A program made the translations under genes and the position numbers. The notes below the pieces were generated by a model. The model ran no database searches, was not told the origin of the DNA, and was given only the letters and a program-made list of their open reading frames with translations. A stretch of 63,602 nt of DNA, counting the filler, from Nemertoderma westbladi (Eukaryota > Animalia > Xenacoelomorpha): the NCBI GenBank assembly GCA_032718475.1. It is 5 parts of 5 records of this genome, joined end to end, with 100 filler letters (N's around TTAATTAATTAA, not from the genome) between each part and the next. Parts side by side here need not be neighbours in the genome. Positions count along the whole stretch, not along the records: positions 9,619 to 26,185 come from JAUCBJ010002437.1; 4 more parts are not named here. One strand, written 5' to 3'. Each line of letters opens with the position of its first letter. Position 1 is the stretch's first letter. Below, one piece after another: positions 1 through 22,519 of the stretch.

Positions 1-490
1 CTCTGTTTACATAGGTAGAGCGCCACGTCCTAAAAGGAACTGCTAATATTTCCCGAAAGTGAATAATATTTGTCAGAGATTATATATTAGTAATCAATCG
101 AATAATACAGTAGGCTTGACCGCAAATAAATTTAAGCCCACGAATCCAGTCTCCCGGTGTTATAAACGGGTCATTTGGACGCGCATGGACTGGCTTCGGC
201 TAATGTTTTTGGTTTGTTTTGTATTAAATCTTATCATCTTACAAAAGGCAGATTATCAATAAAGACATATAAATTTCGGCAGGTTAAACTGCTGAAGGTC
301 TATAAAAGCGCGTACAAGATTGCTAAAGACTAAAGAGCTAATTTTAGGAAAATCTGCCTTATATTTTTAGAATTATTATAATTAATTTTGTTATGTTTAT
401 AATGAATTGTATCTTTTGACAGACTACTTCATGTGCGACCGTGATAATAAAATTAAATGGTGCCGAAATATTTTCACTTAACTGCAGGTA
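1..490. repeat. Dispersed non-coding repeat (second, inverted copy at ~54240-54707)
   Basis: Bases 1-80 (ctctgtttacataggtagagcgccacgtcctaaaaggaactgctaatatttcccgaaagtgaataat) are the reverse complement of ~54630-54707, and similarity continues for ~450 bp. Confidence 0.8.
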
Positions 491-539
491 GGGGGGGGGG
501 GGGGGGGGGGGCAATCAACATTCTTCCCTCTCCAGGTAG

Positions 540-2590
540 ATAGGCAGGAAAACGGGGAGCTCATTCATGAGCCTAAGATTATAAGTAATTTATTCAATAA
601 CTATTTCATTAATGTAGCCTCGAATCTTGTCCAAAAATTGCCAATTGCTAAAAATAAATACAGTCTAAATTCGGAAATACTAAACAAATTTTACTCGGAA
701 AAGGTTAAGAATTCTCCAAAGTTATTTTTACAGCCTGTCTCAGAAGCTTATGTATTGAAAAATCTTGTCAGTATTTCGTCATCTAAAAGTACTGGACTGG
801 ACCAGATTCCAGCAAGGTTTCTTAAGGATGGTGCGGAAGTGCTAAAGATTCCTATTACTTACATAATTAACTACTCAATTTTAGAAAATGTAGTCCCGGA
901 TGATCTTAAATTGGCGAAGGTTGTTCCAATATTTAAAAAGAACAGTAAATTAGAAACCAGTAATTACAGGCCCATTAGTGTGTTAAGTATTGTATCCAAA
1001 ATTCTTGAACGTTCAGTGTACACTCAGCTAGAGTTCCATCTTAACAAACTCAATTTAATATACGAATTTCAATCTGGCTTCCGTAAATCTTACTCTACAG
1101 ATAGTTGTCTAATCAATTTGACGGATAATATTAGGTGTAACAACGCGAAGGGATTGTATACCGGTATGGTAATGTTAGATTTACAGAAGGCCTTTGACAC
1201 GGTTGATCACGAAATATTACTAGGAAAACTAGATCTTATGGGTGTGGGCTCAATTAATTGGTTCAGGTCATACTTATCAGATAGGGGTCAAGTTGTAGAT
1301 ATAAATAAAACTCAGTCCTCAGTTCAGAAAATTAAGTGTGGAGTACCGCAGGGTAGCATCTTAGGGCCGTTGCTGTTTGTATGTTACGTAAATGATATGA
1401 TTAGTAGCATAGATCCGGACTTTAAACTAATATTATACGCTGATGATAGTGCATTAATCTTTTCTCACAGGGACCCGGACACAATTTGTGAAAAACTAGG
1501 CAAAGTTCTAGAATCCTGCAACGAATGGCTCATCGATAATAAGCTTTCAATTCACTACGGCAAAACTGAAAATATTTTATTCGGCTCGAAAAGAAAATTA
1601 AACAAGTTCCGAAACTTTGAAGTAATTAGCAACGGCCACAAAATTGAAAATAAAAAAGAAGTTAAATATTTAGGCTCCAAATTGGATTGTAGTTTATCCG
1701 GAGAAAGCATTGTTAAAAATATTATTGCAAAAGTTAGTGGCAGACTAAAGTTTCTTTATCGACATAAAAATAGCCTAAATTTTAATTCTCGTAGGTTGCT
1801 TTCTTCATCTTTAATTCAATGTCATATTGACTATGCAAGTTCATCTTGGTATGAAGGCTTAACTAAAAATCTCAAAAATAGGTTACAAACAGCTCAAAAC
1901 AAGGTAGTACGTTTTATTAATGATTATAAACCACGTCACCATTTAACCCCTGAAGATTTTAATCAGTCTGGTTTAATTCAAGTAGACAGTAGAGTAAAGC
2001 AGCTTCGGCTCAACCATGTACATAAAGTTTTCAATGATAACTGCCCTAAATACTTAAATCAAAAATTTACCAAACTGAGTGATACACATTCATACGGCAC
2101 CAGAGCCAGCACATCAAATTTTTATGTTCCCAATTGTATATCCTTTGAAAGCGAAACGTTTTTCTTTAATGGAATAAAGAATTGGAATTCCTTACCGAAT
2201 AACATTAAAAATATTAAAAATGAACATGCCTTTAAGTCTGCAGTAAAATCCCATCTCCAAGACCAGTGCAAATTCTTATATAGCAGTATTTAGTTTAGTT
2301 CAATATTAAATAGGTGCATGTGCAATAATTAGTAATAATGTTCAATTTTGTATTTCTTGTATCTTATTTAGTTTAAATTATATAATTATTCTATATACAG
2401 TAGTTAGTTTAGTTTGTATTGGTAACCAAGTAACTTGAAGGACCCCCTTGGAAATAAGCTGCAAAGCTTTAGGGGTTATCCTTTATGTTATGTTGGACAA
2501 TACTTACTATACATTAATAATTTTACTGAGTTAATGTATTGGTTTCTATTGTTTGCATAATATATAAATAAATCTATCTATCTATCTATC
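540..2590 (+). mobile_element. 5'-truncated CR1/L2-group LINE with (TATC)n tail
   Basis: RT ORF 638-2293, followed by an AT-rich 3' UTR ending aataaatctatctatctatctatc. Confidence 0.9.
638..2293 (+). CDS. Non-LTR retrotransposon reverse transcriptase (ORF2 without endonuclease)
   Basis: Motifs NYRPISVL, QSGFR, LDLQKAFDTVDH, GVPQGSILGPLLF, YADD, KYLG, WNSLP; uninterrupted 551 aa. Confidence 0.93.
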   Translation: MPIAKNKYSLNSEILNKFYSEKVKNSPKLFLQPVSEAYVLKNLVSISSSKSTGLDQIPARFLKDGAEVLKIPITYIINYSILENVVPDDLKLAKVVPIFKKNSKLETSNYRPISVLSIVSKILERSVYTQLEFHLNKLNLIYEFQSGFRKSYSTDSCLINLTDNIRCNNAKGLYTGMVMLDLQKAFDTVDHEILLGKLDLMGVGSINWFRSYLSDRGQVVDINKTQSSVQKIKCGVPQGSILGPLLFVCYVNDMISSIDPDFKLILYADDSALIFSHRDPDTICEKLGKVLESCNEWLIDNKLSIHYGKTENILFGSKRKLNKFRNFEVISNGHKIENKKEVKYLGSKLDCSLSGESIVKNIIAKVSGRLKFLYRHKNSLNFNSRRLLSSSLIQCHIDYASSSWYEGLTKNLKNRLQTAQNKVVRFINDYKPRHHLTPEDFNQSGLIQVDSRVKQLRLNHVHKVFNDNCPKYLNQKFTKLSDTHSYGTRASTSNFYVPNCISFESETFFFNGIKNWNSLPNNIKNIKNEHAFKSAVKSHLQDQCKFLYSSI

Positions 2591-4756: not shown

Positions 4757-5022
4757 ATGTCGCAGTGTCCGAGTGGATACGGCGCCTGAACTGCTTACAC
4801 AATAGTGTTTGGTTGTACAGGTTCGAATCCGACTAAAGGCTGTAGAAATTTCGCACTGTTGTGTCCCTAGGCAAGACACTTTAGACATTAGTGCCTACGC
4901 CAACCCAGCGGTATAATGGGAACCTGGCTTTGCTGGGGTAATGATAATAAAAGCGCTTTGAGTATGCTGAGCGTAGAAAAGCGCTATATAAATAACCAAT
5001 ATTATTATTATTATTATTATTT
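4757..5022 (+). mobile_element. tRNA-derived SINE with L2-type 3' tail and (ATT)n
   Basis: A-box tgtccgagtgg, B-box ggttcgaatcc, core tgtgtccctaggcaagacactt, tail aagcgctttgag...aaaagcgctatataaat followed by (att)n. Confidence 0.82.
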
Positions 5023-5939: not shown

Positions 5940-7475
5940 ATGAGAATATAATTCTATAAATGGAAAAACATGCACCCTTAAAAACAAAGATATTGAAAAG
6001 TAAAACCTCATCACCGTGGTATACTCCTGAATTGCGCCAACTTAAACGGTTACGGCGTTCACCAGAACGAACATGGCGATCACATTGCACTGAACAAACC
6101 CATTCCGCATACATAAACGCTCGAAATACATACAGCAAAGCATCGCAAAGGAAATATTACATTGGGAAAGTTGATGGGTGTAATGGCGATCAAGAAAACT
6201 ATTTTCATTGGTAAAATCTTTAACAATACCATTAAATAAAATTGAATTCCCCGACCCACAACCTGAATACACATTGTTTGATTCATTTGCAAACTTCTTT
6301 ATCGAAAAGATTGACAAGATTCGAGATGAAATATCTATACAGCAAGCCACTATATCTAACATAAATAGCAATTACACCAACCAACCTGAATTTGGAAACA
6401 CAACTTCACCAACATTTTCGAGATTTTCTAAACTTTCTTCAGATGAAATAAGGAGACTCATTATGAAATCTCCTAATAAACAGTGCAATTTTGACCCGCT
6501 TCCAACGTGGCGTGGCTGTTGAAAGAGGTCATTGACCTTCTCCTCCCAATAATAACTTAAAAATAGTGAATAAATCTTTGGAAAATGGGGTGTTTCCTGA
6601 ACAGTGGCTTGAAGCTATTATAACACCACTTCTTAAGAAACTCAAACTCAATCCGAAACTATTCCCTATCTTCCGACCTGTTAGTGGTTATCATTTTTGT
6701 CTAAACTAACAGAATGTGTAGTTTCCGAAGATACCACCGAAATTCTAATGGCAATGGATAAACAGATATTGTTCTACTCGATTTGAGCACTGCATTCGAT
6801 ACAGTTGATCATACAGTACTGTTAAACACATTGTGGTCAAAGTTTAAAATCGATGATGCCGAGCACTAGTGGTTCACTTCATTTCTCGGTGATAGGTGTA
6901 TGCGTGTCAAGGTTGATGGGGTTTTCTCTCGGAAAGTTCAGTTACGTTTTGGTTTTCCACAAGGATCTTGTTTGGGGTGTATTTTGTTCATCATTTACGT
7001 TACTGTCGTATACGAGATTGTCGTTAAACATTTACCAACGTTCATGGATTTGCTGACGACAAACAATTATACCTGTCGTTCAAACCAAACTGTGATTTCT
7101 CCGAACAGGCGGCTGTAACAGCTGTCGAACAATGTATAATTGAGATACAATGTTGGCTTATAAAAAACTGGCTAAAAATTAATGATGACAAAACTGAGTT
7201 TCTAATTATTGGGACGAAACAGCAGTTAGCCAAAGTTATTATCAACGTAATCAAAGTCGTCAATCATAGTACTGAACCAGTGAAAAATGTTCCGAATTAG
7301 GGTGCCTATTTTGACTTTACAATGACAATGGAAACTTTCGTTAGTCGAACATCTAGTGTTGTACCCTATCACTTAATAAATCTTTGGAAAATACGGCCAT
7401 ATCTTACACAATCGGCAGCAGAAAAGCTAGGTCATTCCTTGATATCAAGTCATTTGGATTACTGTAATTCACTTT
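5940..7475 (+). pseudogene. Degenerate L2/CR1-type LINE ORF2 (RT), many frameshifts
   Basis: Fragments KHAPLK, SPWYT, FANFFIEKI, DPLP, LLDLSTAFDTVDH, GFPQGSCLG, FADD, LKINDDKTE, LDYCNSL. Confidence 0.88.
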
Positions 7476-8917
7476 ACTTTTACTCACTCTATAGACGCGA
7501 GCAAACTCGGTCAATGTGACATACGTTCACCGACAACTTTACTTTTACTCACTCTATAGACCCGAGCGAACTCAGTCAATGTGACATACGTTCACCAATC
7601 ACTTTACTTTTACTCACTTTATAGACACGAGCGAACTTGGTCAATGTGACATACGTTCACCGATCACTTTACTTTTACTCACTCTATAGACGCGAGCAAA
7701 CTCGGTCAATGTGACATACGTTCACCGACAACTTTACTTTTACTCACTCTATAGATGCGAGCGAACTCGGTCAATGTGACATAAGTTCACCAATCACTTT
7801 ATTTTTACTCACTCTATAGACGCGAGCGAACTCGGTCAATGTGACATACGTTCACCGATCACTTTACTTTTACTCACTCTATAGATGCGAGCGAACTCGG
7901 TCAATGTGACATAAGTTCACCAATCACTTCACTTTTACTCACTCTATAGACGCGAGCAAACCTCGTCAATGTGACATACGTTCACCGACAACTTTACTTT
8001 TACTCACTCTATAGATGCGAGCGAACTCGGTCAATGTGACATAAGTTCACCAATCACTTTATTTTTACTCACTCTATAGACGCGAGCGAACTCGGTCAAT
8101 GTGACATACATTCACCGATCACTATAATTTTACTCACTCTATAGACGCGAGCAAACTCGGTCAATGTGACATACGTTCACCGATCACTTTACTTTTACTC
8201 ACTCTATAGACGCGAGCGAACTCGGTCAATGTGACATACGTTCACCAATCACTTTACTTTTACTCACTTTATAGACACGAGCGAACTTGGTCAATGTGAC
8301 ATACGTTCACCGATCACTTTACTTTTACTCACTCTATAGACGCGAGCAAACTCGGTCAATGTGACATACGTTCACCGATCAACTTTACTTTTACTCACTC
8401 TATAGACGCGAGCGAACTCAGTCAATGTGACATACGTTCACCAATCACTTTACTTTTACTCACTTTATAGACACGAGCGAACTTGGTCAATGTGACATAC
8501 GTTCACCGATCACTTTACTTTTACTCACTCTATAGACGCGAGCAAACTCGGTCAATGTGACATACGTTCACCGACAACTTTACTTTTACTCACTCTATAG
8601 ACGCGAGCGAACTCAGTCAATGTGACATACGTTCACCAATCACTTTACTTTTACTCACTTTATAGACACGAGCGAACTTGGTCAATGTGACATACGTTCA
8701 CCGATCACTTTACTTTTACTCACTCTATAGACGCGAGCAAACTCGGTCAATGTGACATACGTTCACCGATCACTTTACTTTTACTCACTCTATAGACGCG
8801 AGCAAACTCGGTCAATGTGACATACGTTCACCGACAACTTTACTTTTACTCACTCTATAGACGCGAGCGAACTCGGTCAATGTGACATAAGTTCACCAAT
8901 CACTTTATTTTTACTCT
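7469..8917. repeat. 60-bp tandem satellite, ~24 copies
   Basis: Unit cactttacttttactcactctatagacgcgagc(a/g)aactcggtcaatgtgacatacgttcaccga repeats with a period of 60. Confidence 0.97.
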
Positions 8918-9518
8918 ATGTCAAATTATTTAATGTTCTGGAATTACAAGGTGTGTTGGGGTGATTTAGAGCAACAAACTAGAAATCACGTACTTATATT
9001 TGATTTGGTATATAAACTTTGATTAATTAAATGATAACTACGTAGTGAATTTATTATTGCAGATTGTGGTTTGGTTTTACATTTCGATCTCGTGCGATGA
9101 GTAAGTCCCTATCAGTTTTGGGATTTTTCAGAATGGTTCAACCCACGACCTTTTAACATTTGTTCTATGGAGACATCTACAAGTTATCTTGTTTGTCTCA
9201 ATTGGCACACCTTATGCAGCAAGAGACTTTAATTTATTTTATGTATTTGTTATAAATGTATTTTGTTCATTTGTTGCAATTTTAGGCTGATTTTATATTA
9301 TAATAAATATGACGATTATAATTTTAGGCTGGATGGGCCACATAATAAAGATAAGGATCGGGTCCTAATAATAAAAAAATAAAAATAAAATATACATCAA
9401 ATCTCTTCAGTTATGTATTTGTAAAAAGCTGTGTAAGTTGTGTAAGACTTGTTGGGAGGATTATTACAGCTGCGATATATCACCAATAAACTAACTTATC
9501 CATAGGCCTTTGTCAGAT

Positions 9519-9618: not shown

Positions 9619-10054
9619 GATAACAATGTGTTGGCAAGCTGTATTTTTCGAGGTGTTTGTTATTATACATTTATTATAGGAAGGGATCTAGGGGTCTTTT
9701 ACCTTACAATTACTTCAATTACAATTCTTAAATTTGTACACTATCCGGTTAAAAAGTACGCATGTGATGGGATTAGTCCTACAATTGCGCCAATAAAAGA
9801 TAAGTTATTTTCGGTAAAATAAAATTTATCATTCGAGGTAAAAGACCCCTAGATCCCTTCCTATAATAAATGTATAATAACAAACACCTCGAAAAATACA
9901 GCTTGCCAACACATTGTTACTGTCAATAATCAAAAAATCAGGGGCTAATAAAATGGCAGCTGGCTTTGAAATTAATACTCCATATCTCAACAACCTGTGG
10001 CCTAGTGGTTGTTGTCTCGGCTTCCACCTCGAGGTCCCAGGTTCGAATTCCGAC

Positions 10055-10097
10055 ACCACGCTGATGAGACCCAGTAAGCTCGAAACGCGTACGTGGT
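10055..10097 (+). ncRNA. Minimal type-I hammerhead ribozyme, copy 1 (stem II mismatch)
   Basis: accacg CTGATGA gacc-cagtaa-gctc GAAA cgcgta cgtggt. Confidence 0.8.
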
Positions 10098-10469
10098 TTG
10101 GAGAGATATGAGATATTAATTTCAAGAAAAATTACGCGATTCTTAAATTTGTACACTATCCGGTTAAAAAGTACGCATGTGATGGGATTAGTCCTACAAT
10201 TGCGCCAATAAAAGATAAGTTATTTTCGGGAAAATAAAACTTATCATTCGAGGTTAAGACCCCTAGATCCCTTCCTATAATAAATGTATAATAACAAACA
10301 CCTCGAAAAATACGCAGCTTGCCAACACATTGTTACTGTCAATAATCAAAAAATCAGGGGCTAATAAAATGGCAGCTGGCTTTGAAATTAATACTCCATA
10401 TCTCAACAACCTGTGGCCTACTGGTTGTTGTCTCGGCTTCCACCTCGAGGTCCCATGTTCGAATCCGAC

Positions 10470-10513
10470 ACCACGCTGGATGAGACCCAGTATGGTCGAA
10501 ACGCGTACGTGGT
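10470..10513 (+). ncRNA. Hammerhead copy 2 (extra G in core, CTGGATGA; probably inactive or a sequencing error)
   Basis: accacg ctggatga gacc-cagtat-ggtc gaaa cgcgta cgtggt. Confidence 0.65.
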
Positions 10514-10827
10514 TTGGAGAGATATGAGATATTAATTTCAAGAAAAATTACGCGATTCCTAAATTTGTACACTACCCGGTTAAAAGGTACGCATGTGATG
10601 GGATTAGTCCTACAATTGCGCCAATAAAAGATAAGTTATTTTCGGTAAAATAAAACTTATCATTCGAGGTAAAAGACCCCTAGATCCCTTCCTATAATAA
10701 ATGTATAATAACAAACACCTCGAAAAATACAGCTTGCCAACACATTGTTACTGTCAATAATCAAAAAATCAGGGGCTAATAAAATGGCAGCTGGCTTTGA
10801 AATTAATACTCCATATCTCAACAACCT

Positions 10828-10881
10828 GTGGCCTAGTGGTTGTAGTCTCGGCTTCCACCTCGAGGTCCCAGGTTCGAATCC
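10828..10881 (+). promoter_or_regulatory. tRNA-like internal Pol III promoter (A and B box) of the retrozyme unit (representative copy)
   Basis: A-box tggcctagtgg, anticodon-like loop cttccac, B-box ggttcgaatcc; present in all four full units. Confidence 0.75.
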
Positions 10882-10884
10882 GAC

Positions 10885-10927
10885 ACCACGCTGATGAGAC
10901 CCAGTAAGGTCGAAACGCGTACGTGGT
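10885..10927 (+). ncRNA. Minimal type-I hammerhead ribozyme, copy 3 (intact)
   Basis: Stem I accacg/cgtggt, core CUGAUGA, stem II gacc/ggtc, GAAA, palindromic stem III acgcgt, GUA cleavage triplet. Confidence 0.92.
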
Positions 10928-11298
10928 TTGGAGAGATATGAGATATTAATTTCAAGAAAAATTACGCGATTCTTAAATTTGTACACTATCCGGTTAAAAA
11001 GTACGCATGTGATGGGATTAGTCCTACAATTGCGCCAATAAAAGATAAGTTATTTTCGGTAAAATAAAACTTATCATTCGAGGTAAAAGACCCCTAGATC
11101 CCTTCCTATAATAAATGTATAATAACAAACACCTCGAAAAATACAGCTTGCCAACACATTGTTACTGTCAATAATCAAAAAATCAGGGGCTAATAAAATG
11201 GCAGCTGGCTTTGAAATTAATACTCCATATCTCAACAGCCTGTGGCCTAGTGGTTGTAGTCTCGGCTTCCACCTCGAGGTCCCATGTTCGAATCCGAC

Positions 11299-11341
11299 AC
11301 CACGCTGATGAGACCCAGTAAGGTCGAAACGCGTACGTGGT
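11299..11341 (+). ncRNA. Minimal type-I hammerhead ribozyme, copy 4 (intact)
   Basis: Identical to copy 3. Confidence 0.92.
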
Positions 11342-11601
11342 TTGGAGAGATACAGTATGAGATATTAATTTCAAGAAAAATTACGCGATTCTTAAATTTG
11401 TACACTATCCGGTTAAAAAGTACGCATGTGATGGGATTAGTCCTACAATTGCGCCAATAAAAGATAAGTTATTTTCGGTAAAATAAAACTTATCATTCGA
11501 GGTAAAAGACCCCTAGATCCCTTCCTATAATAAATGTATAATAACAAACACCTCGAAAAATACAGCTTGCCAACACATTGTTACTGTCAATAATCAAAAA
11601 A

Positions 11602-12668
11602 CAATCAATAATGGCACAACCAATGGTTTCTCCAAATAACTCGGTATCAGGATGGATATCTTTATCTGTAAATAGTGTAATTTTACAATCCTCCTCTTGT
11701 GGAAGTTCTGGACAGTTGGCTGCCCAGTGGTAAATAGAATGGCAAACGGAGCAACCACTGGGTTTTCCATCATAATCCAAAGGATTAATTTTACTTGTAC
11801 TTGTACTTCCTATTCCACCATAATGTCGTCTTAAATTTGCTACTCGACCTGGTTGTTGTCTGGGGAATTGTTGTTTAAAGCTTCGATAATAATTACCACT
11901 TCGTCTTGGCCCTCTATTGTTATATCCACCACGGAATGGGCCACAGTAGGTATTATAAACATATTCTTCATGGGGATTTGGTTCATTCCACTGATTGCCG
12001 TCATTATAGTCTTGATAATATTCTTCCTCGAATATAGGCTCCGTTGTGTGAACAGCTGGAAATGTTGGTTCAACCTTAATATTCATAGTATCACTGTTAT
12101 TTGATTCTCCGGATATTCGGGAGTCACCATGTATACGGGTAATTTGTAACTTCATATCCTTGTAAGTAAACTCATTGACTGACGCTCGTGCAAGGTGGAA
12201 ATCTGCTTCCGATAAACTCGCACATTCAAGAAGTTGGTAGGCGAGAAATTCTTCGGGAAAATTTAGGTTATACATTTTACATTTATTATAAAGTCGTTCA
12301 AACTCTATAAGATAATCAACCATTGACATGTCAGCTGGGTGCAGGAACTTTACAAATGAGTTTATTGCCTGGAAGATCACCAACGGATGACTTAGTTCGT
12401 ATAACGAATCGGGTTTATGGATGACCAAATCAAGCCCTCCAGCAGAATTTAATTGGGCGAGTTCTAGTTCAAAAGCTGCATCTCTAGCCTTACCACTGAG
12501 GCTTAGAGCGAGCGCAGTTCCTTGTTTATTGGCCCTAATATCCGTAAAGTGTTTCCAAGCACTGACTTCCTTCTTCCAAATTTCGTATGAAACGCCATCT
12601 CGTAATTGGGGAGGAGCCTTGTATGAAGAAGTAGATCGATCGGAAGCTGTTGAAGAGGACATCGCCAT
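11602..12668 (-). CDS. GalEa-like Ty1/Copia Gag with CCHC knuckle, cut off at the protease start
   Basis: PPQL...YEIWKKEV..W...T....KQGTALALSLSGKARD; NPLD...CSVCHSIYHWAANCP; AIID at the junction with the array. Confidence 0.8.
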
Positions 12669-12798: not shown

Positions 12799-14685
12799 CC
12801 AAGTACCGGTTAAATCTATGTATCAGTTAGTCCGGTAGCCTACTAGGCCTTAGGCCTAATCTAACACGAGGTAATGGAACCAGACGTAGTATACATAGGG
12901 CCTTACCTAGTGGATGCCAGGGGAATTAAGTTACTGGGATGGGTGGAACCGCACGACGGCGAATCCGAGGTTAACCCCGAGGATCGGTGTCGTCGGTTAG
13001 TAAGAACCCCAGTAAGCAGGGGAAAATCAGTAGGACAGAGAAGCGACGGGAGTCCATCGTGACCGATAAGTCCGCTACATCCTCCGCAAAGCAAGAAGGG
13101 TATTAGAGATAGATCTGGAGTGTCAACTAGACATTGTGGCGCTGGATCAATAGAAACTGGAGAGGCAGTTAGATGAGGGAACTGCGCTATTAGAGAGGGA
13201 GAGAGAATTAGCGAGAGAGTGTAAAGAGAGGGCCGAAAGGGTGGCGAGAAACTATAGGGAGCGGGAGGAGAGAGAGATGAATGAGCGTAAAGAGCGTGAG
13301 GAGTGAGAGGCAAAAGTAGAAAACAAGCGCAAGGAGCAGGAGGCGAATGTAGAGAACGAGCGTAGAGAGCGGGAAGTGAGGGAGGCCGAATTGGCCAACC
13401 AATGTATTAGGGAGGATAGAGAGAGAGAGAGAGCGGGAAAGCATATGCGGGATGATATGCATACCTGGTTGAGGGGGCTTATGCAATACCAAGCGAAGCA
13501 AAAGCGCCGGTTAGAACTGGCAAAGTTGGGATTATCGGAGAGTGAGGCTGGTTCGGGTAGTATTTACGAGGAACCAGAGGAAATGGAAACCTTTGTTAAT
13601 ACCCCACTTACAGGTACTGGACGACAGACCCAGGACTGGTGTGACCGTACGGGCGGGGTGGGGGGGGGGGGGTAATAATAATAATACGTTAGAGGGAGTT
13701 AATATTAATAGTACCGTAATAGACAACCCTAATCAAACCTTTCTTGCAGGAAATGGTACTTTGTCCGGTGGCGGTGGCCCTGGTTTGGGTGTGCGTAGTG
13801 GACTCATAATCTAAATAATATCCCTAATTTAAATGTGCAAAATAATCTAAATAATAACCCTGATTCTGGGCAGAGTGGTTTGGATAATAATTTAGGTAAC
13901 AATAATACGTTAAATAACCCTGAAGAAATTAACCAAAATAATATCATTAGTAATAATGTAACGAATCAGGGCGAAATTGATAACAGTGCAATTAATACAA
14001 ACGCAGGGGGAACAGGTGGCCCAGCCAACAAGAATGTCCCACAAGCGTCGGTGGACAATGCGCGCGGCGAGTTAGGTGAACCGCGGCACCCGATGACAGA
14101 TAATAGTAGGATTGCGAATATCCCCAGAACCGTCCAACCAGGCAGAGAGAGAGACATTGGTGCCGTGAGCGGGCGAGCAAGAAGACGTCGAGCCCAGTCG
14201 GAAGACGGAAGAAGAACAGTGGTGTTTATCCGGGAGGTCGAAGCAAGATCTCACGAGGAGGATCACTGCACTGAAGCGAGATGAAGTGAGGAGAATCGAA
14301 GGAGCATTGCTATGAGCAACAGGAGAGGAAGGATGGACAGTGAACCGTCAGTAGTCGAGATGGAGTCAGAGAGCCAGTGGGGTCGTACTCCGGGAGATTG
14401 CCGTCTCCCCGGAGAGACACTACCTGGTGAGATATACCACACACTGGGAGAAGGGTACAGGATGTACTGGTGCGAGGACGAGGACAGGAGAGGGGATCGA
14501 AGAGAAACTTCCCGACGGAACGTAGCTGCCGATTGAGAATATGGTAGTCGCAGGGAGGACTTCTTGGAATATTTGAGAAGATTAAACTTCGGTCCGGAAG
14601 GACACAGGCAGACTGCAAGACATACTGTAGGCCTACTGCACATACTATAGGCAATGCTGGGAGAGATAGTGTAGGCGATAGGGTT

Positions 14686-16800
14686 GTGCGGACAATGGGA
14701 TTAGACCCGGAAGTTGCGGCATACATACTGGTAGGTAGGCAAGAAGTGGATAGGCCTATACCGGTACCTGCACACCAGTATGACTATAACATGCAGGGAT
14801 ATAATATATACCCAGGGGAGGGGGGAGCTATTGCCGATAGGTGCATGGGGCCTAACATCATAACATCAACCCCAGTACCAAATATAACACCGGTGGGGGG
14901 GGGGGGGCAGGGTGACATTCCCCCATTGCAATATCAGCAACACACTCAACCAAGAACAAAAACCCCAAACCCCTCAGACCCAAATAAGTCATATGACACA
15001 GAGATATGGAGGGGACCATTACCCCCAATGATATATCCAACACAGAGAAAGTCAACAGGCCCGACGGACGAACCGCACCCGACAGCGAGGGAGTCTGTAT
15101 CACAACCATCGAGCATGCTAGAGGTACAAGCGATGGGAATGGCAACACTCATCGACATGCTAAAGACCAGGATCGAGCTACCACCAGTGGAGCCGTTCAA
15201 ATTCGACAGTAGTAAGCCGGAGGAATACCTGCAATTCCAGCGTATATACAGTAACGAAATAGTAACGAAGAACCTGACGCAGGCGGAGTGCCTAAAATAC
15301 TTACAAGTTTACACAGGGGGGCCAGCAAACGACATCGTAAGGCAGTACCAATGTATTGAAGGTGGATTCACGACTGCATGGCGGGCCCTAGACATGGAAT
15401 TCGGGCATCCTGCTTAGATCATCCAACAAACCTTAAGCTGAATAACATCAGGCGGACTACAGGATGACCCTCTCAGCATCAAGACCTTCGCAAATAAAGT
15501 CGAAAAAGCACTGATTGTGCTAAAGACCCTAGATGCACCTTACAAACTCAACGCATCGAATAACATCACTACAATAGCGCAGGCACTACCGATCTGGCTG
15601 AGGAACAAGTGGAGAAAGATCGCCTTCTCCACTCGGGAGAAGAAGGGTGCGGAGCCAGGGCTAGAGGAGATGTCGAACTTCCTTAACTATGAAGCAGAAC
15701 TAATTACAGACCCAGTCTACAGCGAGGATAGACTGGGGAGGGTGCCGAGAGCCGAATACAACAGGCCTAAACCAGAGCAGAGTGTGGTGAATGCATTACC
15801 AAAGTTAAGACAGTCACTACCATACACGGCAACACAGGGGACTGCAAGTCCACAGATAGCTGGGAATAGAGCCACACCGTGGCACGAACAGGGACAAAAT
15901 AACAACATAAACAAATATAATCCCAACACACACAGTAGGCCAAGTCCAAATAATAAAAACACTAAACCGCTAGGTATGAATATACGTGCGATACGCAAAG
16001 CGCTGTATAAAGAAGGCTACAATCCAAAATACAAATGCCAATTATACACAAATGGATACCACCAGACCATGGATTGCAGACATTGGCAGGCGTTGCCTAA
16101 ACAAGATCGGGAAGCCTACGCGGGTAGAAATGGAATTTGTCATTGATGTGTGGTAGGAGGACACAGGTCCGAAGAGTGTAGGGAAACAACAATAAGAGGT
16201 GACGAGACTGATGAGACTGGAGGCCAAACTATGGCTTCGAACATGACGGGAGCAAGGAGGAAGAGGACAGTACTACTTGGGGTAGTACCAGTGAGAATAA
16301 CAGGAGAGGACGGGCTATCGGTCACAACACTAATGTTGATCGATAGTGGAGCAGCATTCACGTTAACGGAGAGTTGGGTGGTCGAAAGGATAGGGTTAAG
16401 AACGAGGCCTAGCAAGATGGCGGTAACCACTATCTCCAATAAGGACGAGGTCATGAGAATGAGCACGGGGTGTTGCCAGATATCAGCGATAACACCAGGG
16501 TGCAGCTATGGGTCTACCATCGAACCCATCCGAATAATGGAATCGATTAATATTAACGCCAGGTGACCCACGAAAATCGAGGTCGAGCAATACCGGTACT
16601 TGGACAACATTGATTTCTCCGTGCCCGGGCTGGATGTCCCGAAAGTATCTCTCAGAGTCGGCATGGACTGCCCGACAGCCCACGAGAGACTACAGACCAT
16701 GTTTGGTGATGACAGGAAGCGAGACCCGATGGCCATTCTCATGCCATTTGGATGGACGCTCACTGGCCCAATTAAGACGAGGTCACCGTTTGGTGTGTCT
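14686..16800 (+). pseudogene. BEL/Pao LTR-retrotransposon gag-protease remnant with in-frame stops
   Basis: One frame carries ELPPVEP.KFD...YLQF, LKYLQVYTGGPA, LPIWLRNKW, degenerate CCHC motifs, VVPVRI...LIDSGA and PMAILMPFGWTLTGP. Stops at 15415, 15439, 16144 and 16564. Confidence 0.85.
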
Positions 16801-17640
16801 GAAACATCAGGGTGCATGCTGCCCAGCACTGTTGAGGACATAGATGAGAAACCAGAGGCGGGCGATGGGGAGGTCCCATGTGAGAAGCGGCCTGGAGAAG
16901 GATACCAGGAGTCGGGAATGGGTATGGATCTGGAACCACGCATAGTGGAGCGTGGTGAAAGGATAGAGGATAATTCCAGAAAAATACCGCCGATAAATGA
17001 GTTAGGAGGGGAAGCAACAGCAAGAGAGTGGGCGGAGGAGAATGGGTTCGACGCAGAGGACCTAGAGGCGATGGGATGGAACAAGGATGTTCCTGGCAAG
17101 TATCGGTATAAGGATGGAGAAGTGTGGACAGCGAGATGTCTGGAGGGGTGTCCGGAGGAGACGCCGGTCCGGTTGAGAAACATACCAAAAAGGGGGAGGC
17201 AAATAAGAAGACAGGGTTGAAAGAGATAGGATTTCTATTCTCTATTCTGCTTTACCTATTCTCTCGATTTCTTTTCATTCTACCGCCAGGTGACGACAAG
17301 ATGAAGGGTGGCATTTTGCTGCCAGGGGACCATGAGGAAATCAAGAAGGCGACCGAAAGACCCTATTTTAGGGTGGAGGAGAAGGGTGATCAATCAAGGG
17401 AAGGGAAAAGAGTTGGAATTGACAAGGAGAGTGGGGCGAAGGATAAGAGGACCTACAGGGGGGCAGTGGGAGAATCGCCTTAAAGTTTAGTCGTCCAATA
17501 TATTGGACTGAGGTGGGTGGGAATGAGGGTGAGTCGCCCTTCCCACACATAAAAACAAAAAAAATAAACAACAAAAATAATAAAAGTAGTAATAGCAGTA
17601 GTAGGTAGTACATAGCAGTAAAGTACATAGCAAGTACTAT

Positions 17641-18036
17641 AGAACCTGTGGGCACTGAGGGGGCCACGTAGTGAGCGAAAGTAAAGGGTATGTAGGCATA
17701 CCATATTAGCAGTAGTAGGGGGCATAGTACAGTAGAAGTTAGAAGTTGTGGGCACCGAGGGTGCCACGTAAGAAAGTAAAGGGTATGTACACATACCATA
17801 GAAGTATCAGTAGGGTACATAGTACCATAGAAGTTGTGGGCACTGAGGGCACCACATAAGAAAGTAAAGGGTATGTACACATACCATAGAAGTAGCAGTA
17901 GGGTACATAGTACCATAGAAGTTGTGGGCACTGACGGCACCATGTAAGAAAGTAAAGGGTATGTATGTATACCATAGAAGTAGTATTAGGGTACATAGTA
18001 CCAGAGAAGTTGTGGGCAATGAGAGCGCCACGTAAG
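17641..18036. repeat. 88-bp minisatellite, ~4.5 copies
   Basis: agaagttgtgggca recurs at 17741, 17829, 17917 and 18005; a variant is at 17641. Confidence 0.9.
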
Positions 18037-19197
18037 GAACTAGGAAGGTAGATAGGATAATAGCACAGGCAAAGGGGAACATAGATAAAATAAAATAAAA
18101 CTAAGGAAAATTGGCACTTTGGGGGTGGTAGAGAACACAGGACATTGAGGAGCAGTGGCGATGGGCCAGCTCATGGGGCTCGTCTGCCACAAGCCGATGG
18201 ACTGGGGCAAGTTCCGAGAGGAGTACGGAGCGGAACTGGCGAACTCGCTGAAATGGGGAGCGAGGCCAGGGAAGCAAGAGATATATCAGTTCCGCAGGGG
18301 AGCGATAAAGATATATCAGAAGAGATATATCTTACAGGAGGATTGGATAATGATAGGTTTATTAAACCTATTCATGGCCGTGGTTATCAGAAGTAAGCCG
18401 GCGGCGTTTCTGCTATCAGGAGCACGTCTTAAATCACAGGAGAGCCTTTAAGGTGGCCTTCGTAGGTCTGGTAGACCACCCGGGGCTGAGGGGCGAGTCG
18501 GTGTACTACGATAGCCTACACCTAGTGGACAGAGAGGTGGACATACCATACAAGAGGTGAAAGAAGTTTGAAGCAGATAGAGGTGGGGCTTCTTTAATAT
18601 TAATCCGGGAGCCCACCAGGAGATTATCAAGAGGAGACTGCCATTCACATATCAGGAGGTAGCGACAGCGGAATCGTACACCAACACTCAGAGATACTTG
18701 GATAGATGGTCGCCAGAAAACAGGGTCGAGTTCAGGGACTTTCTGGTGGAGCACGTGCCGCGGGTGATGAAAATGATCCTGTGGGACGCTACCAGGGGGA
18801 AGCAGGAGGGACACTCGGAGGGACCACCTGCAAAGCATTACCGGGAGTTGATAACACCGGTGCCCAAGGAACCAATGACGGGGCTTAGCAAGACAGTAAC
18901 GGCAAGAATGAGAAGTCTCAGGGAGGACAAGCCGGAGGGAAGGAAGCGGCCCAGACAAGATGATGACAGGGGCAAAGAACTTAGATGGTTCCCGAAGACG
19001 GGAGGAGCGAACTAGAACTCAGGGACAGAGATGTGGGTGTGCCTGGAAGGCGCCACATGTAGGGTAAATAATTAAGTGCAATTAGTATGTACGACGTACG
19101 TTTGTAGATAATCAATTAATAGCGATAATTAATTGAGTTAATGGTGGTTGATTCATAGTATAAATATAATTAAATTTGTTGCGAGATTATAACAGTA

Positions 19198-19241
19198 TTA
19201 TAATATATTTCGTACCGACTGGCGGTGCTTCATCAGATATA
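19198..19241 (-). ncRNA. Putative minimal hammerhead in the Penelope pLTR (mirror copy on + at ~20710-20752)
   Basis: tat CTGATGA a gcaccg-ccagt-cggtac GAAA tatatt ata; stem I is weak. Confidence 0.55.
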
Positions 19242-19571
19242 GGTAGGTTAACAAAATACTAATGATAAGGGTACAATATAATAGAAAGGGAAACACATAA
19301 GTATGATTAATGACATTCAGATGTAAATACAGTAATTGTAATATTAACATTGCGATACTTCAGTACTTAGGCATTCTGAATTCTGACTACGAGTACAGTG
19401 TAGGTATATAGCAGTAATGACACGGTAACTGTAGAACTGTATGATAAATCTAATATGATTAGGTCTGTTATAATTGTATTGTATGTACATTATAAAGTTG
19501 ATGAAGCATGAAGAGTTATACAGTATGTATCTTTAACTAAATTTTATGCATTATGAAAACTAATAGTTTCT

Positions 19572-19742
19572 TATCCTAAATTAATAAATGCTAATTTGTT
19601 ATATCCTAAATTAATAAATGCTAATATGTCATATCCTAAATTAATAAATGCTAATTTGTCATATCCTAAATTAATAAATGCTATTTGTTATATCCTAAAT
19701 TAATAAATACTAATAAGTCATATCCTAAATTAATAAATGCTA
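19572..19742. repeat. 30-bp minisatellite (~6 copies) in the Penelope 3' region
   Basis: atatcctaaattaataaatgctaatttgtc repeated. Confidence 0.9.
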
Positions 19743-19795
19743 CTATTTTATTATATAGTTATTGTAACCTCCCCCTCCCCTATTTTTTTTTTGTG

Positions 19796-20362
19796 TTAGT
19801 GTGTATGTTTTTTGTGGTTCTGGGCCCTGTTGTAGAAATCTTGGATACCGCGTAGAAATGGTACGAATATTGATGATACGTTCACTGATAATCTACCGTT
19901 AATTACTTTGTCACCTCCTTCTTTTATAAATAAACTTTCTAGAATTCTTCGTCTTAAAGTGTGGTGTAGTCCTCTGTGCAATATTTTGGAGTTATTAAAG
20001 TCGGGTGTGTGTTGTGATGTGATGATATGGGCGGTGAGTTCTGATTGTTTGATTCTACTATGTTTTATGTCTGCGGTGTGTTGTTTTTGTCGGACGTCCT
20101 TTGTATAACTAGATTCTCCTACGTAAAATTTCCCACATGAGCAAGGTATACTGTATGTTACGGAGTTTGGGGGTTTTTTGGGTTTGTGTCCTTTGCAGAT
20201 AATTGATCCAATGGATGTACCGGGTTGAAAGTAGGTGCCGATATTGTAACGATTACATAAACGTTCTAAATCTTCCGTTAGATCTTTTACGTATGGAAGG
20301 GGAATGTTAGTCAGTGATTTTTCTTTAGGGGTTAATTTTCTGGTGGTATTTAAAGCGTTCAT
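19796..20362 (-). CDS. Penelope-type GIY-YIG endonuclease (C-terminal part of the ORF)
   Basis: LPYV...; VTYSIPCSCGKFYVGES...R.KQH...SELTAH...H...RRILESLFI...IN. Confidence 0.9.
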   Translation of the reverse strand: MNALNTTRKLTPKEKSLTNIPLPYVKDLTEDLERLCNRYNIGTYFQPGTSIGSIICKGHKPKKPPNSVTYSIPCSCGKFYVGESSYTKDVRQKQHTADIKHSRIKQSELTAHIITSQHTPDFNNSKILHRGLHHTLRRRILESLFIKEGGDKVINGRLSVNVSSIFVPFLRGIQDFYNRAQNHKKHTH

Positions 20363-22519
20363 TATTAATTTAGGATAAGAAACTTTGAGCTTTCATAATG
20401 CATAAAATTTAGTTAAAGATACAATACTGTATAACTCTTCATGCTTCATCAACTTTATACTGTACATACAATACAATTATAACAGACCTAATCATATTAG
20501 ATTTATCATACAGTTCCACAGTTACCGTGTCATCACTGCTATATACCTACACTGTACTCGTAGTCAGAATTCAGAATGCCTAAGTACTGAAGTATCGCTA
20601 TGTTAATATTACAATTACTGTATTTACATCTGAATGTCATTAATCATACTTATGTGTTTCCCTTTCTATTATATTGTACCCTTATCATTAGTATTTTGTT
20701 AACCTACCTATATCTGATGAAGCACCGCCAGTCGGTACGAAATATATTATAATACTGTTATAATCTCGCAACAAATTTAATTATATTTATAATCAATTAA
20801 TCAATATAAATATATAATCAATCTAAGTACTATAGTCATATATAACCTTTTCCAATTAGCTACTGGGACTGGAGACCAATTGACTATGACAGAAGGACGA
20901 GACATTAGACGGATCCCATTTCTCAAGTGTGGCCACACTAATGAGAATGTGGGAGCTTCACAGGAGGGTACGGAGGATGAAAACAAATATCGGTTGAGTA
21001 TAGGAAATCGGGGAAGTATAGAGAGGAGGTGTTGGCATGTGAAAGGAGTGCAATTCAATTGTGGGGAGCGAGCAGTGAGAGAGGAAGAGTCCCAAGGGAC
21101 CAGATAGAGAATAAGGGACAGCAAGGTCCGTGAGAGAGATTTGAGTATGGGTAAAGAAAATTGTGTGGAAAATGAGCACAATAGTCTCAAACAGAGACAC
21201 CAGATATCTTGGTGCAACATAGCTTGCGAGTGCGCCAAGGATTGGTAGTAATAACACACCCAGGGGGGGGGGGCGGTCTGGAAAGCCGGCCCCGAGAAAA
21301 GAACTCCACCCCACAAGCAATACTAGATTGGGTTCCAGCGGAATTGAAGCGCACTTAAGGTTGATGCTATCTTCTTACCGGGAAGATAGCATGGGGGGCG
21401 GTGTAAGCGGATTCAATTCCCTTGCATTATCCACCCGAAAATGGGACCAGTGGCATTGTACCAATATAGTTGGCGATACGAGATTACCAATAATAATCTC
21501 GCCTCATAACCAACTCGGGGGGGGGGGGGGGGCGATACAGGCCCTAAAGCCACAGAGAGAGGTGAGAGGTCAAACCACCTCACAGGGAGAACACAGCTAG
21601 ACAAGGCTAGCGGCAGGGGGTAACACTTACAGGGAGTGCCAAAGTTACAATTAGTATATAAGCCATTAGCAGGCAGGGGAGCATGTGGGGAAAGATAGGA
21701 AAGCATCCATTGGGTACAGAAGGCCAAGTAGAGTAGAGGTGAAACCAATATCTATGTATATCAATCATATAGTTATCCTAATTAAACTGATTTACCAGTC
21801 AGTTCATTAATCACAGAGTTGCAGACCGGTTATAGTTTTTAACCGTCATTCTACACACTGCTGTTGTAATTCTGTATTGCAATTTCAATCATATACTGTC
21901 ATACATTCTTTGCTATTATCATTGGAACATTAACATCGAGAAACACAAACTCTGTTATTTTTCCCCAACGGCCTTCGGCCAAAAGGACACTAGCCCAGCA
22001 GACCAGCAGTTAAGTGACGCGTACAAATCTTACCCGGTCGGGATCTCAGATCCCGTCACAACGGTTTTCAGTTTTTGAATGAAGGCGGTTGGTTCTAATG
22101 ATATCTGGATTACATTAAAAAGACGAAAAATAAACCCAACATCAATGTTTGAATATTGCTGAAAAAAACAGTTTTTTAACGGCTTGTTGTATCGAAATAG
22201 CTCAGAAATTGAAAAATCCGGCTCTGCCTGCAGTAACCATACTTCTGTAATCATACCCAATTTCGTTGCATATGATTGAAATTTTAAAAAAATTAGGGGG
22301 GTGGGGTGGGGGAGTGGGGTGGGATGGGTTAGCGCTCCGACCCCCTGAAAATGGTTGTTTTATTAAGGGAGATGGTGATTATTATAATCGGCATGCGCAT
22401 TGAAGCTGCATTGAGATGCTATGCAGGCTTAACAAATAATTTATGCCACCACCATGCAATCCACATTGGGCATGCCCAATGCAGCATGCATTAAGAATGC
22501 TATGCCGGGTGCCGGCTTA

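Follow-up and report, generated by a model that had tools for sequence, protein, structure and literature searches.

Within the window analysed here, a whole stretch of 63,602 nt from Nemertoderma westbladi that is AT-rich, animal-like and filled with repeats, one tandem array places a tRNA-like head in front of a hammerhead ribozyme. What kind of element is this, and how would it be copied? Reviews of animal retrozymes leave two questions: how these elements are transcribed, as they are said to be promoterless, and how they are mobilised, for which Penelope-like elements (PLEs) have been proposed as partner. Our best reading of the array is a non-LTR retrozyme with the layout of Sm-alpha, likely circularised and mobilised by a PLE.

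The tandem array and its hammerhead motifs

TRF and sequence comparison placed a tandem array of 414-bp units on the plus strand at 9724–11601 (period 414, 4.5 copies, 97% matches). Its left end lies in mid-unit and its right end 261 unit-nucleotides past a cleavage site. Sequence comparison further identified an inverted, 5′-truncated piece of the unit on the minus strand (9621–9704, 84 nt, 100% identical), which 19 nt of filler (9705–9723) separate from the array; its outer end adjoins an N gap, before which it reaches the equivalent of unit position 10750. The original prediction of about 4.5 head-to-tail units of ∼415 bp describes the array well, except that the first 86 bases of its range hold this inverted piece, which lies outside the tandem. 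The unit has a GC content of 39%, no coding capacity (the minus strand contains just stop-to-stop frames of 100–129 aa) and no LTR/PBS/PPT layout.

Hammerhead motifs start at 10061, 10476, 10891 and 11305, with GUA ends at 10091, 10507, 10921 and 11335. Three of the four were matched by the Rfam model HH9 at 22–28 bits (E 7e-4 to 0.05), which is under its gathering score of 52. The expectation of a hammerhead in each unit is thus borne out for the motif, while intact ribozymes are confined to copies 3 and 4. Copy 1 (head plus hammerhead, 9998–10101, plus strand; motif and Rfam) carries an extra T in the B box and a C-C mismatch in stem II; copy 2 (10414–10517, plus strand; motif) has a changed A box and an extra G in the core, and is likely dead. 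The intact type I motif of copy 3 (10880–10932, plus strand; motif, Rfam and fold prediction) comprises stem I (10885–10890/10922–10927), the core from 10891, stem II (10898–10901/10908–10911) and a palindromic stem III, with a predicted cut after 10921. Copy 4 (11243–11346, plus strand; motif and Rfam) combines a head with a T at position 52 in the B box and an intact hammerhead. Two intact, adjacent ribozymes in 414-bp tandem units are what is expected of a non-LTR retrozyme, and the predicted cut sites delimit a 414-nt monomer at 10922–11335 on the plus strand.

When one unit was dinucleotide-shuffled 20,000 times and both strands were searched, a bare hammerhead core arose by chance 259 times. 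In context, stems I and II formed with a predicted probability of 0.75–1.0. Helix I spans 6 bp and is extended by a further 4; helix II, of 4 bp, closes a 6-nt loop, and helix III is limited to 1–2 bp (one A-U pair around CGCG). The palindromic stem III was found as proposed. Classification as a 'minimal' PLE-type hammerhead did not hold, since by the definitions in PMC4209133 this shape is the canonical metazoan type I, for which a second copy is described as required for activity. The axolotl Amex1 ribozyme, whose helix III is one pair with a palindromic tetraloop, cleaves well only as a dimer (PMC7229834). Dimer dependence of the array ribozymes is plausible because intramolecular closure of helix III is predicted to cost ∼5 kcal/mol (from −13.2 to −8.0 kcal/mol), the self-duplex of the palindrome is predicted to gain energy (−7.5 kcal/mol), and Amex1 shares this helix III.

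Fold predictions extended beyond the ribozyme. The z-score was −4.19 for the linear monomer (0/100 shuffles) and −3.75 for the circular one (0/60), with −1.9 for the antisense strand (1/60). Repeat search and fold prediction also revealed a 28-nt imperfect inverted repeat (5′ arm 10797–10824, plus strand; partner 10928–10955) that encloses head and ribozyme, and this enclosed domain reached a predicted z of −5.6. Together with stem I, the 28-nt arms would bring both predicted cut ends together. The modelled monomer is highly self-paired, as in non-LTR retrozymes.

Cleavage and circles could nevertheless be dispensable. The head may act as promoter and a PLE as mobilising enzyme, with an uncleaved multimer as template, a weak, protein-assisted or unnecessary hammerhead and only minor circles. 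Hammerhead mutants of PAc, an anole PLE, insert normally, and its cleavage needs protein (PMC11167929). In Xenopus, only one of nine predicted retrozyme dimers was cleaved in vitro, eight remaining uncleaved; this and the cleavage-independent insertion of PAc weigh against our best reading. Half of the array's own ribozymes (2/4) are damaged, and tandem arrays are equally derivable from multimers. We still regard this alternative as quite improbable: the array ribozymes have the canonical shape of those from coral, mussel and axolotl that give abundant circles, and the arms and stem I would juxtapose the two ends that cutting would create.

The tRNA-like head as a putative promoter

A boxes are present at 9998, 10414, 10829 and 11243, the second with one change, and each is followed by a B box at tRNA spacing. 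In copy 3, box and tRNA comparison delimited a tRNA-Gly(TCC)-like head at 10829–10892 on the plus strand, corresponding to tRNA positions 8–73, with the A box at 10829–10839, a TCC anticodon-like triplet, the B box at 10871–10881 and the acceptor 3′ strand at 10885–10891. Both boxes of this copy match the consensus exactly, and the spacings of boxes and anticodon are the modes of real tRNAs. In the 20,000 shuffles described above, an A and B pair with one mismatch each occurred 33 times, a strict B box 62 times and a strict A box 267 times.

The resemblance is not confined to the boxes. With these held fixed, the remaining head positions scored higher on average against 104 distinct tRNAs than every one of 400 shuffles, and Gly-TCC came out on top of 12 isotype groups (mean 10.8 vs ≤8.0 for the others; equalled by 1 of 400 shuffles). 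The tRNAs in question derive from 122 viral-contig loci that were fetched by their boxes alone and represent phages and giant viruses, not the host. We base the isotype assignment on this set because, for a second, Gly-enriched one, the search pattern included the anticodon loop, which makes that set circular for the loop. The CGC at head positions 70–72 is common to 83 of 112 Gly tRNAs and few others; as two letters of this stretch are forced by the hammerhead core, this match is suggestive only. Positions 66–73 indeed serve twice: the acceptor 3′ strand is also the 5′ strand of stem I, and positions 72–73 are the first two bases of the core. At the level of sequence, the head is therefore shown to be tRNA-Gly(TCC)-like beyond its boxes and in register, and it is likely an internal Pol III promoter. 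Both parts of the original prediction that concern the head, a pair of boxes in each unit and a derivation from a tRNA, are upheld by these comparisons.

The head is no longer a recognisable tRNA gene. ARAGORN with default settings and the Rfam tRNA model at E values up to 10 gave no tRNA call on it, and relaxed ARAGORN thresholds returned a Gly/Trp pseudogene in a distorted or different register. Instead of a cloverleaf, a long hairpin was predicted in which the A-box half pairs with the B-box half (z = −2.4, 4/200 shuffles), so the head may have been kept for its structure. The only sense-strand T4 run of the monomer (11053–11056) separates the putative promoter from the next ribozyme, so that Pol III would have to read through it; sense-strand T-runs, the terminators of Pol III, were not depleted (P = 0.51). 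Hairpin and T4 would both suit a PLE-mobilised non-LTR retrozyme whose captured tRNA or SINE head is a passenger or structural hairpin and whose transcription depends on read-through by a host polymerase, as is said of the promoterless metazoan retrozymes (PMC7761336). We consider this rather unlikely. The boxes of copy 3 have stayed exact and at tRNA spacing despite decay of the D, T and acceptor stems, no variant at ≥1% affected either box among the contigs of the sequencing runs (a test of low power), and the layout is that of Sm-alpha, which is reported to be transcribed by Pol III.

Several other loci combine parts of this design. Nine of 34 viral loci, with 8 distinct matches among them (L001, L003, L004, L005, L010, L014, L022, L026 and L029, around position 601 each), carry a well-paired hammerhead motif within a few bases downstream of the 3′ end of a complete tRNA. 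No Rfam hammerhead reached the gathering score in the 10 viral loci that were scanned. These viral motifs look like a hammerhead counterpart of the theta ribozymes associated with phage tRNAs (PMC10879173). Within single viral contigs, L018, L019 and L020 contain repeated hammerhead-like motifs behind a B-box-like hairpin. A metagenome scan with a strict pattern gave 0 matches; a loose one, applied to about half of the collection, yielded 119 loci, of which three passed the stem filter, with no eukaryote-like tRNA-headed tandem among them. One AT-rich metagenome contig (L133) carries a well-formed type I hammerhead with a palindromic stem III, adjoins a TA microsatellite, has no A box and is PLE- or retrozyme-like. 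In the window itself, A/B-box pairs at 4758–4830 (plus strand), 56829 (minus) and 59927 (minus) have no hammerhead core and are probably heads of tRNA-derived SINEs.

Insertion site, dispersed copies and Penelope-like marks

To the right of the array, homologues identified the Gag and protease start of a Copia-type polyprotein on the minus strand (11602–12665), cut off at the protease motif; relatives of this ORF carry integrase and RVT_2 domains. Because the protease motif is interrupted, we conclude that the array was inserted here. Around the junction (11585–11612), an 8-nt word from the final 15 bases of the element recurs in the Copia target just past it; target choice or microhomology during priming may account for this.

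The array shows the partial tandem, the 5′ truncation and the adjacent inverted, 5′-truncated copy that, together with an optional tail or two 3′ ends, are described as insertion marks of PLEs (PMC8557442). For PAc, internal RT initiation at two sites and AT-rich targets have been reported (PMC11167929). Copies of the unit were also compared in sequencing data. The unit or part of it was found in 7 of 12 runs, in all of them as contigs and in none recorded as RNA. Unit contigs numbered 3382, 1303, 1 and 82 in four runs, the three with 3382, 1303 and 82 being labelled as DNA; a sediment run (X7, share 0.11) stands outside these counts. Junctions to dissimilar flanks (agreement 0.41–0.55), clustered from the 18 of 463 loose ends listed, fell at 10752 (17 contigs in X2, 4 in X5) and 10761 (14 in X1, 16 in X2), and the flanks of these clusters, across three runs, were AT-rich. 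Among the same 18 of 463, none coincided with the cleavage site or with the beginning of the head. The array's own right end is equivalent to 10768, near both clusters, and one further joint, on the opposite strand, was present in X1 and X2. The two end clusters are ∼10–15 nt apart; the PLE spacing is 30–40 nt.

The element family is very abundant, dispersed and young. Summed contig depth was ∼5–8 × 10^5, compared with 16–40 on the unique flank (X1); overlapping contigs inflate this sum, which is not a copy number, and we take the latter as hundreds to thousands. None of the seven polymorphic sites at ≥1% in X1/X2 fell within the 43-nt ribozyme, where ∼0.8 would be expected; given the youth of the family, this test has low power. 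Run X5 contained an amplified copy with a broken core. We also considered a 441-nt contig from X3 that wraps around the unit (depth 13.8) as a possible RNA or circle, and rejected it: trace DNA of a high-copy tandem looks alike, and X3 counts as RNA by guess only and bears a different organism label. The absence of a control stretch (65-bp satellite and flank) from X3 is uninformative because this control was >1000-fold shallower in X1.

With an inverted 5′ copy and 3′ ends that, among the loose ends listed, are shared at two internal sites away from the cleavage site, the insertion looks Penelope-like. These marks, on which the original prediction did not remark, likely point to a PLE as the mobilising enzyme.

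Could the hammerhead instead be incidental, and the unit a LINE-mobilised tRNA SINE or a satellite expanded through unequal crossing-over? The array's A-rich right end falls ∼55 nt short of where another head would begin, and the stretch from head to end would resemble a 350-nt SINE; twin priming by L1 also yields 5′ inversions; and an ORF for a LINE-like RT is present in the window (482–2293, RVT_1 E 3e-38). Such an origin is nonetheless very unlikely. The array has no tail beyond A6 and no poly(A) tail, starts in mid-unit and includes sequence upstream of the head, which is not the classical layout of a tRNA SINE. The ∼55 nt upstream of the head, present in each unit, include an arm whose pairing partner lies beyond the ribozyme; a monomeric SINE transcript would lack this arm. 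Local satellite growth is opposed by the many different flanks joined to two fixed ends and by the insertion into the Copia ORF.

PLE-like elements exist in this genome, as a separate fragment 8 kb from the array demonstrates (19148–20804, minus strand; repeats, motif and homologues). It consists of 440-bp inverted arms, 97% alike, around an RT-like ORF, and each arm carries a hammerhead core (20714, plus strand; 19236, minus strand) with a palindromic stem III. The minus-strand ORF (19799–20350) matches the C-terminal part of RT proteins of ∼800 aa (740–850 aa); it had no naming match in Pfam or PDB, and its motifs suggest a GIY-YIG label. A 30-bp tandem repeat occupies 19572–19742. The arms of this fragment, the only PLE-like one in the window, had no DNA similarity to the array, and no homology of the array to an autonomous PLE pLTR was found in this one comparison.

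Other repeats surround these elements. A 65-bp satellite (7469–8916; 22 copies, 92% alike) had modest depth in X1 and X2. At 8910–8944, a 35-nt piece recurs in other contigs from three runs, which agree in an upstream motif and differ in their downstream flanks; it is possibly the end of another repeat family. A decayed LTR element with a weak DUF1759 match, presumably BEL/Pao-like, spans 13300–19000.

A proposed cycle and its relation to known systems

Taken together, we lean, if only slightly, towards an abundant non-coding tandem with a Pol III head, hammerheads that cut as dimers, ligated circles and re-insertion by a PLE. The original view of a non-autonomous retrozyme agrees with the unit's absence of coding capacity, its abundant and dispersed family and the canonical hammerhead tandem. 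Transcription would start near 10822 and continue past the T4 at 11053 into the following unit; one promoter could in this way serve the unit downstream of it, as is reported for Sm-alpha. Two adjacent ribozymes are predicted to pair via the ACGCGU palindrome and to cut after GUA, releasing 10922–11335. Stem I and the 28-nt arms would hold the ends for closure by a host RtcB-type ligase, as has been shown for mussel and axolotl retrozymes. The lone ribozyme of a monomer circle is predicted to be weak, so the circle would be protected. A PLE enzyme, to judge from the DNA marks, would then nick AT-rich DNA and start reverse transcription at a fixed internal site (∼10752–10768). Rolling round the circle or along a multimer, the RT could produce 4.5 copies, a random 5′ truncation and the inverted 5′ piece.

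The array resembles metazoan non-LTR retrozymes in being a low-GC tandem without ORF, with a canonical type I hammerhead and a self-paired monomer; those described form tandems of 150–450 bp with a GC content <50% (PMC7229834, PMC7761336, bioRxiv 10.64898/2026.07.22.740005). Its stem III is like that of the dimer-active Amex1, one pair and a palindromic tetraloop (PMC7229834). It differs in that metazoan retrozymes are promoterless by description (PMC7761336), whereas here an intact tRNA-type pair of A and B boxes is fused to the ribozyme, and in that RNA and circles, predicted for the array, have been demonstrated for them. With PLEs it shares partial tandems, 5′ truncation, an inverted 5′ copy and a palindromic stem III; two near 3′ ends and AT-rich targets, to judge from the 18 of 463 loose ends listed, may be further common features (PMC8557442, PMC11167929, PMC4209133). 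Unlike PLEs, it has no ORF, its ribozyme is canonical rather than minimal, and its ends lie ∼10–15 nt apart instead of 30–40. Like Helenus and Ajax, it would exemplify how a non-autonomous element that is not a LINE-dependent SINE can take up a small-RNA gene (PMC10886601); those are LTR elements, the array a tandem hammerhead repeat with PLE marks (PMC10886601). Among titles and the starts of abstracts, with subscription papers, Repbase and several supplements outside the search, we found no description of a tRNA-headed element with PLE insertion marks.

The closest likeness is to Sm-alpha, as originally proposed. There, a Pol III promoter is followed by a hammerhead and the repeat is reported to be transcribed by Pol III (PMC6765202), so the design of promoter plus hammerhead is already known, having been published for Schistosoma. 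Sm-alpha and Sj-alpha are likewise high-copy tandems of non-coding units with a Pol III-type promoter and then a type I hammerhead (PMC6765202, PMC2770079, PMC8490949). Since the promoter lies 5′ of the ribozyme in both the array and Sm-alpha, cutting would leave it at the monomer's 3′ end. Penelope-type insertion marks, present at the array, are unmentioned for Sm-alpha in the accessible parts of PMC6765202, PMC2770079 and PMC8490949. The unit of the array has 414 bp and a Gly-TCC-like head, that of Sm-alpha ∼335 bp and a Gln-TTG-like head. Stem III of Sm-alpha is longer than the 1–2 bp palindrome of the array. The different heads argue for separate origins and suggest that distinct tRNAs gave rise to the Sm-alpha design on more than one occasion.

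Within 414 bp, the unit of this family combines a tRNA-type promoter with a hammerhead of the dimer type, and it bears PLE-style marks of insertion; copies 3 and 4 offer a ready cassette in which transcription and mobilisation of a retrozyme can be tested. More tentatively, and possible rather than probable, such repeats could form a recurring animal class of 'Penelope-dependent SINEs', circular-RNA retroelements with their own Pol III promoter. In the array, the acceptor 3′ strand would have become stem I, so that, once cut, the monomer would close in the manner of a circularly permuted tRNA offered to the host tRNA ligase. If this were true, it would explain both the transcription and the mobilising enzyme of at least some retrozymes, and Sm-alpha would be the first-found member of the class.
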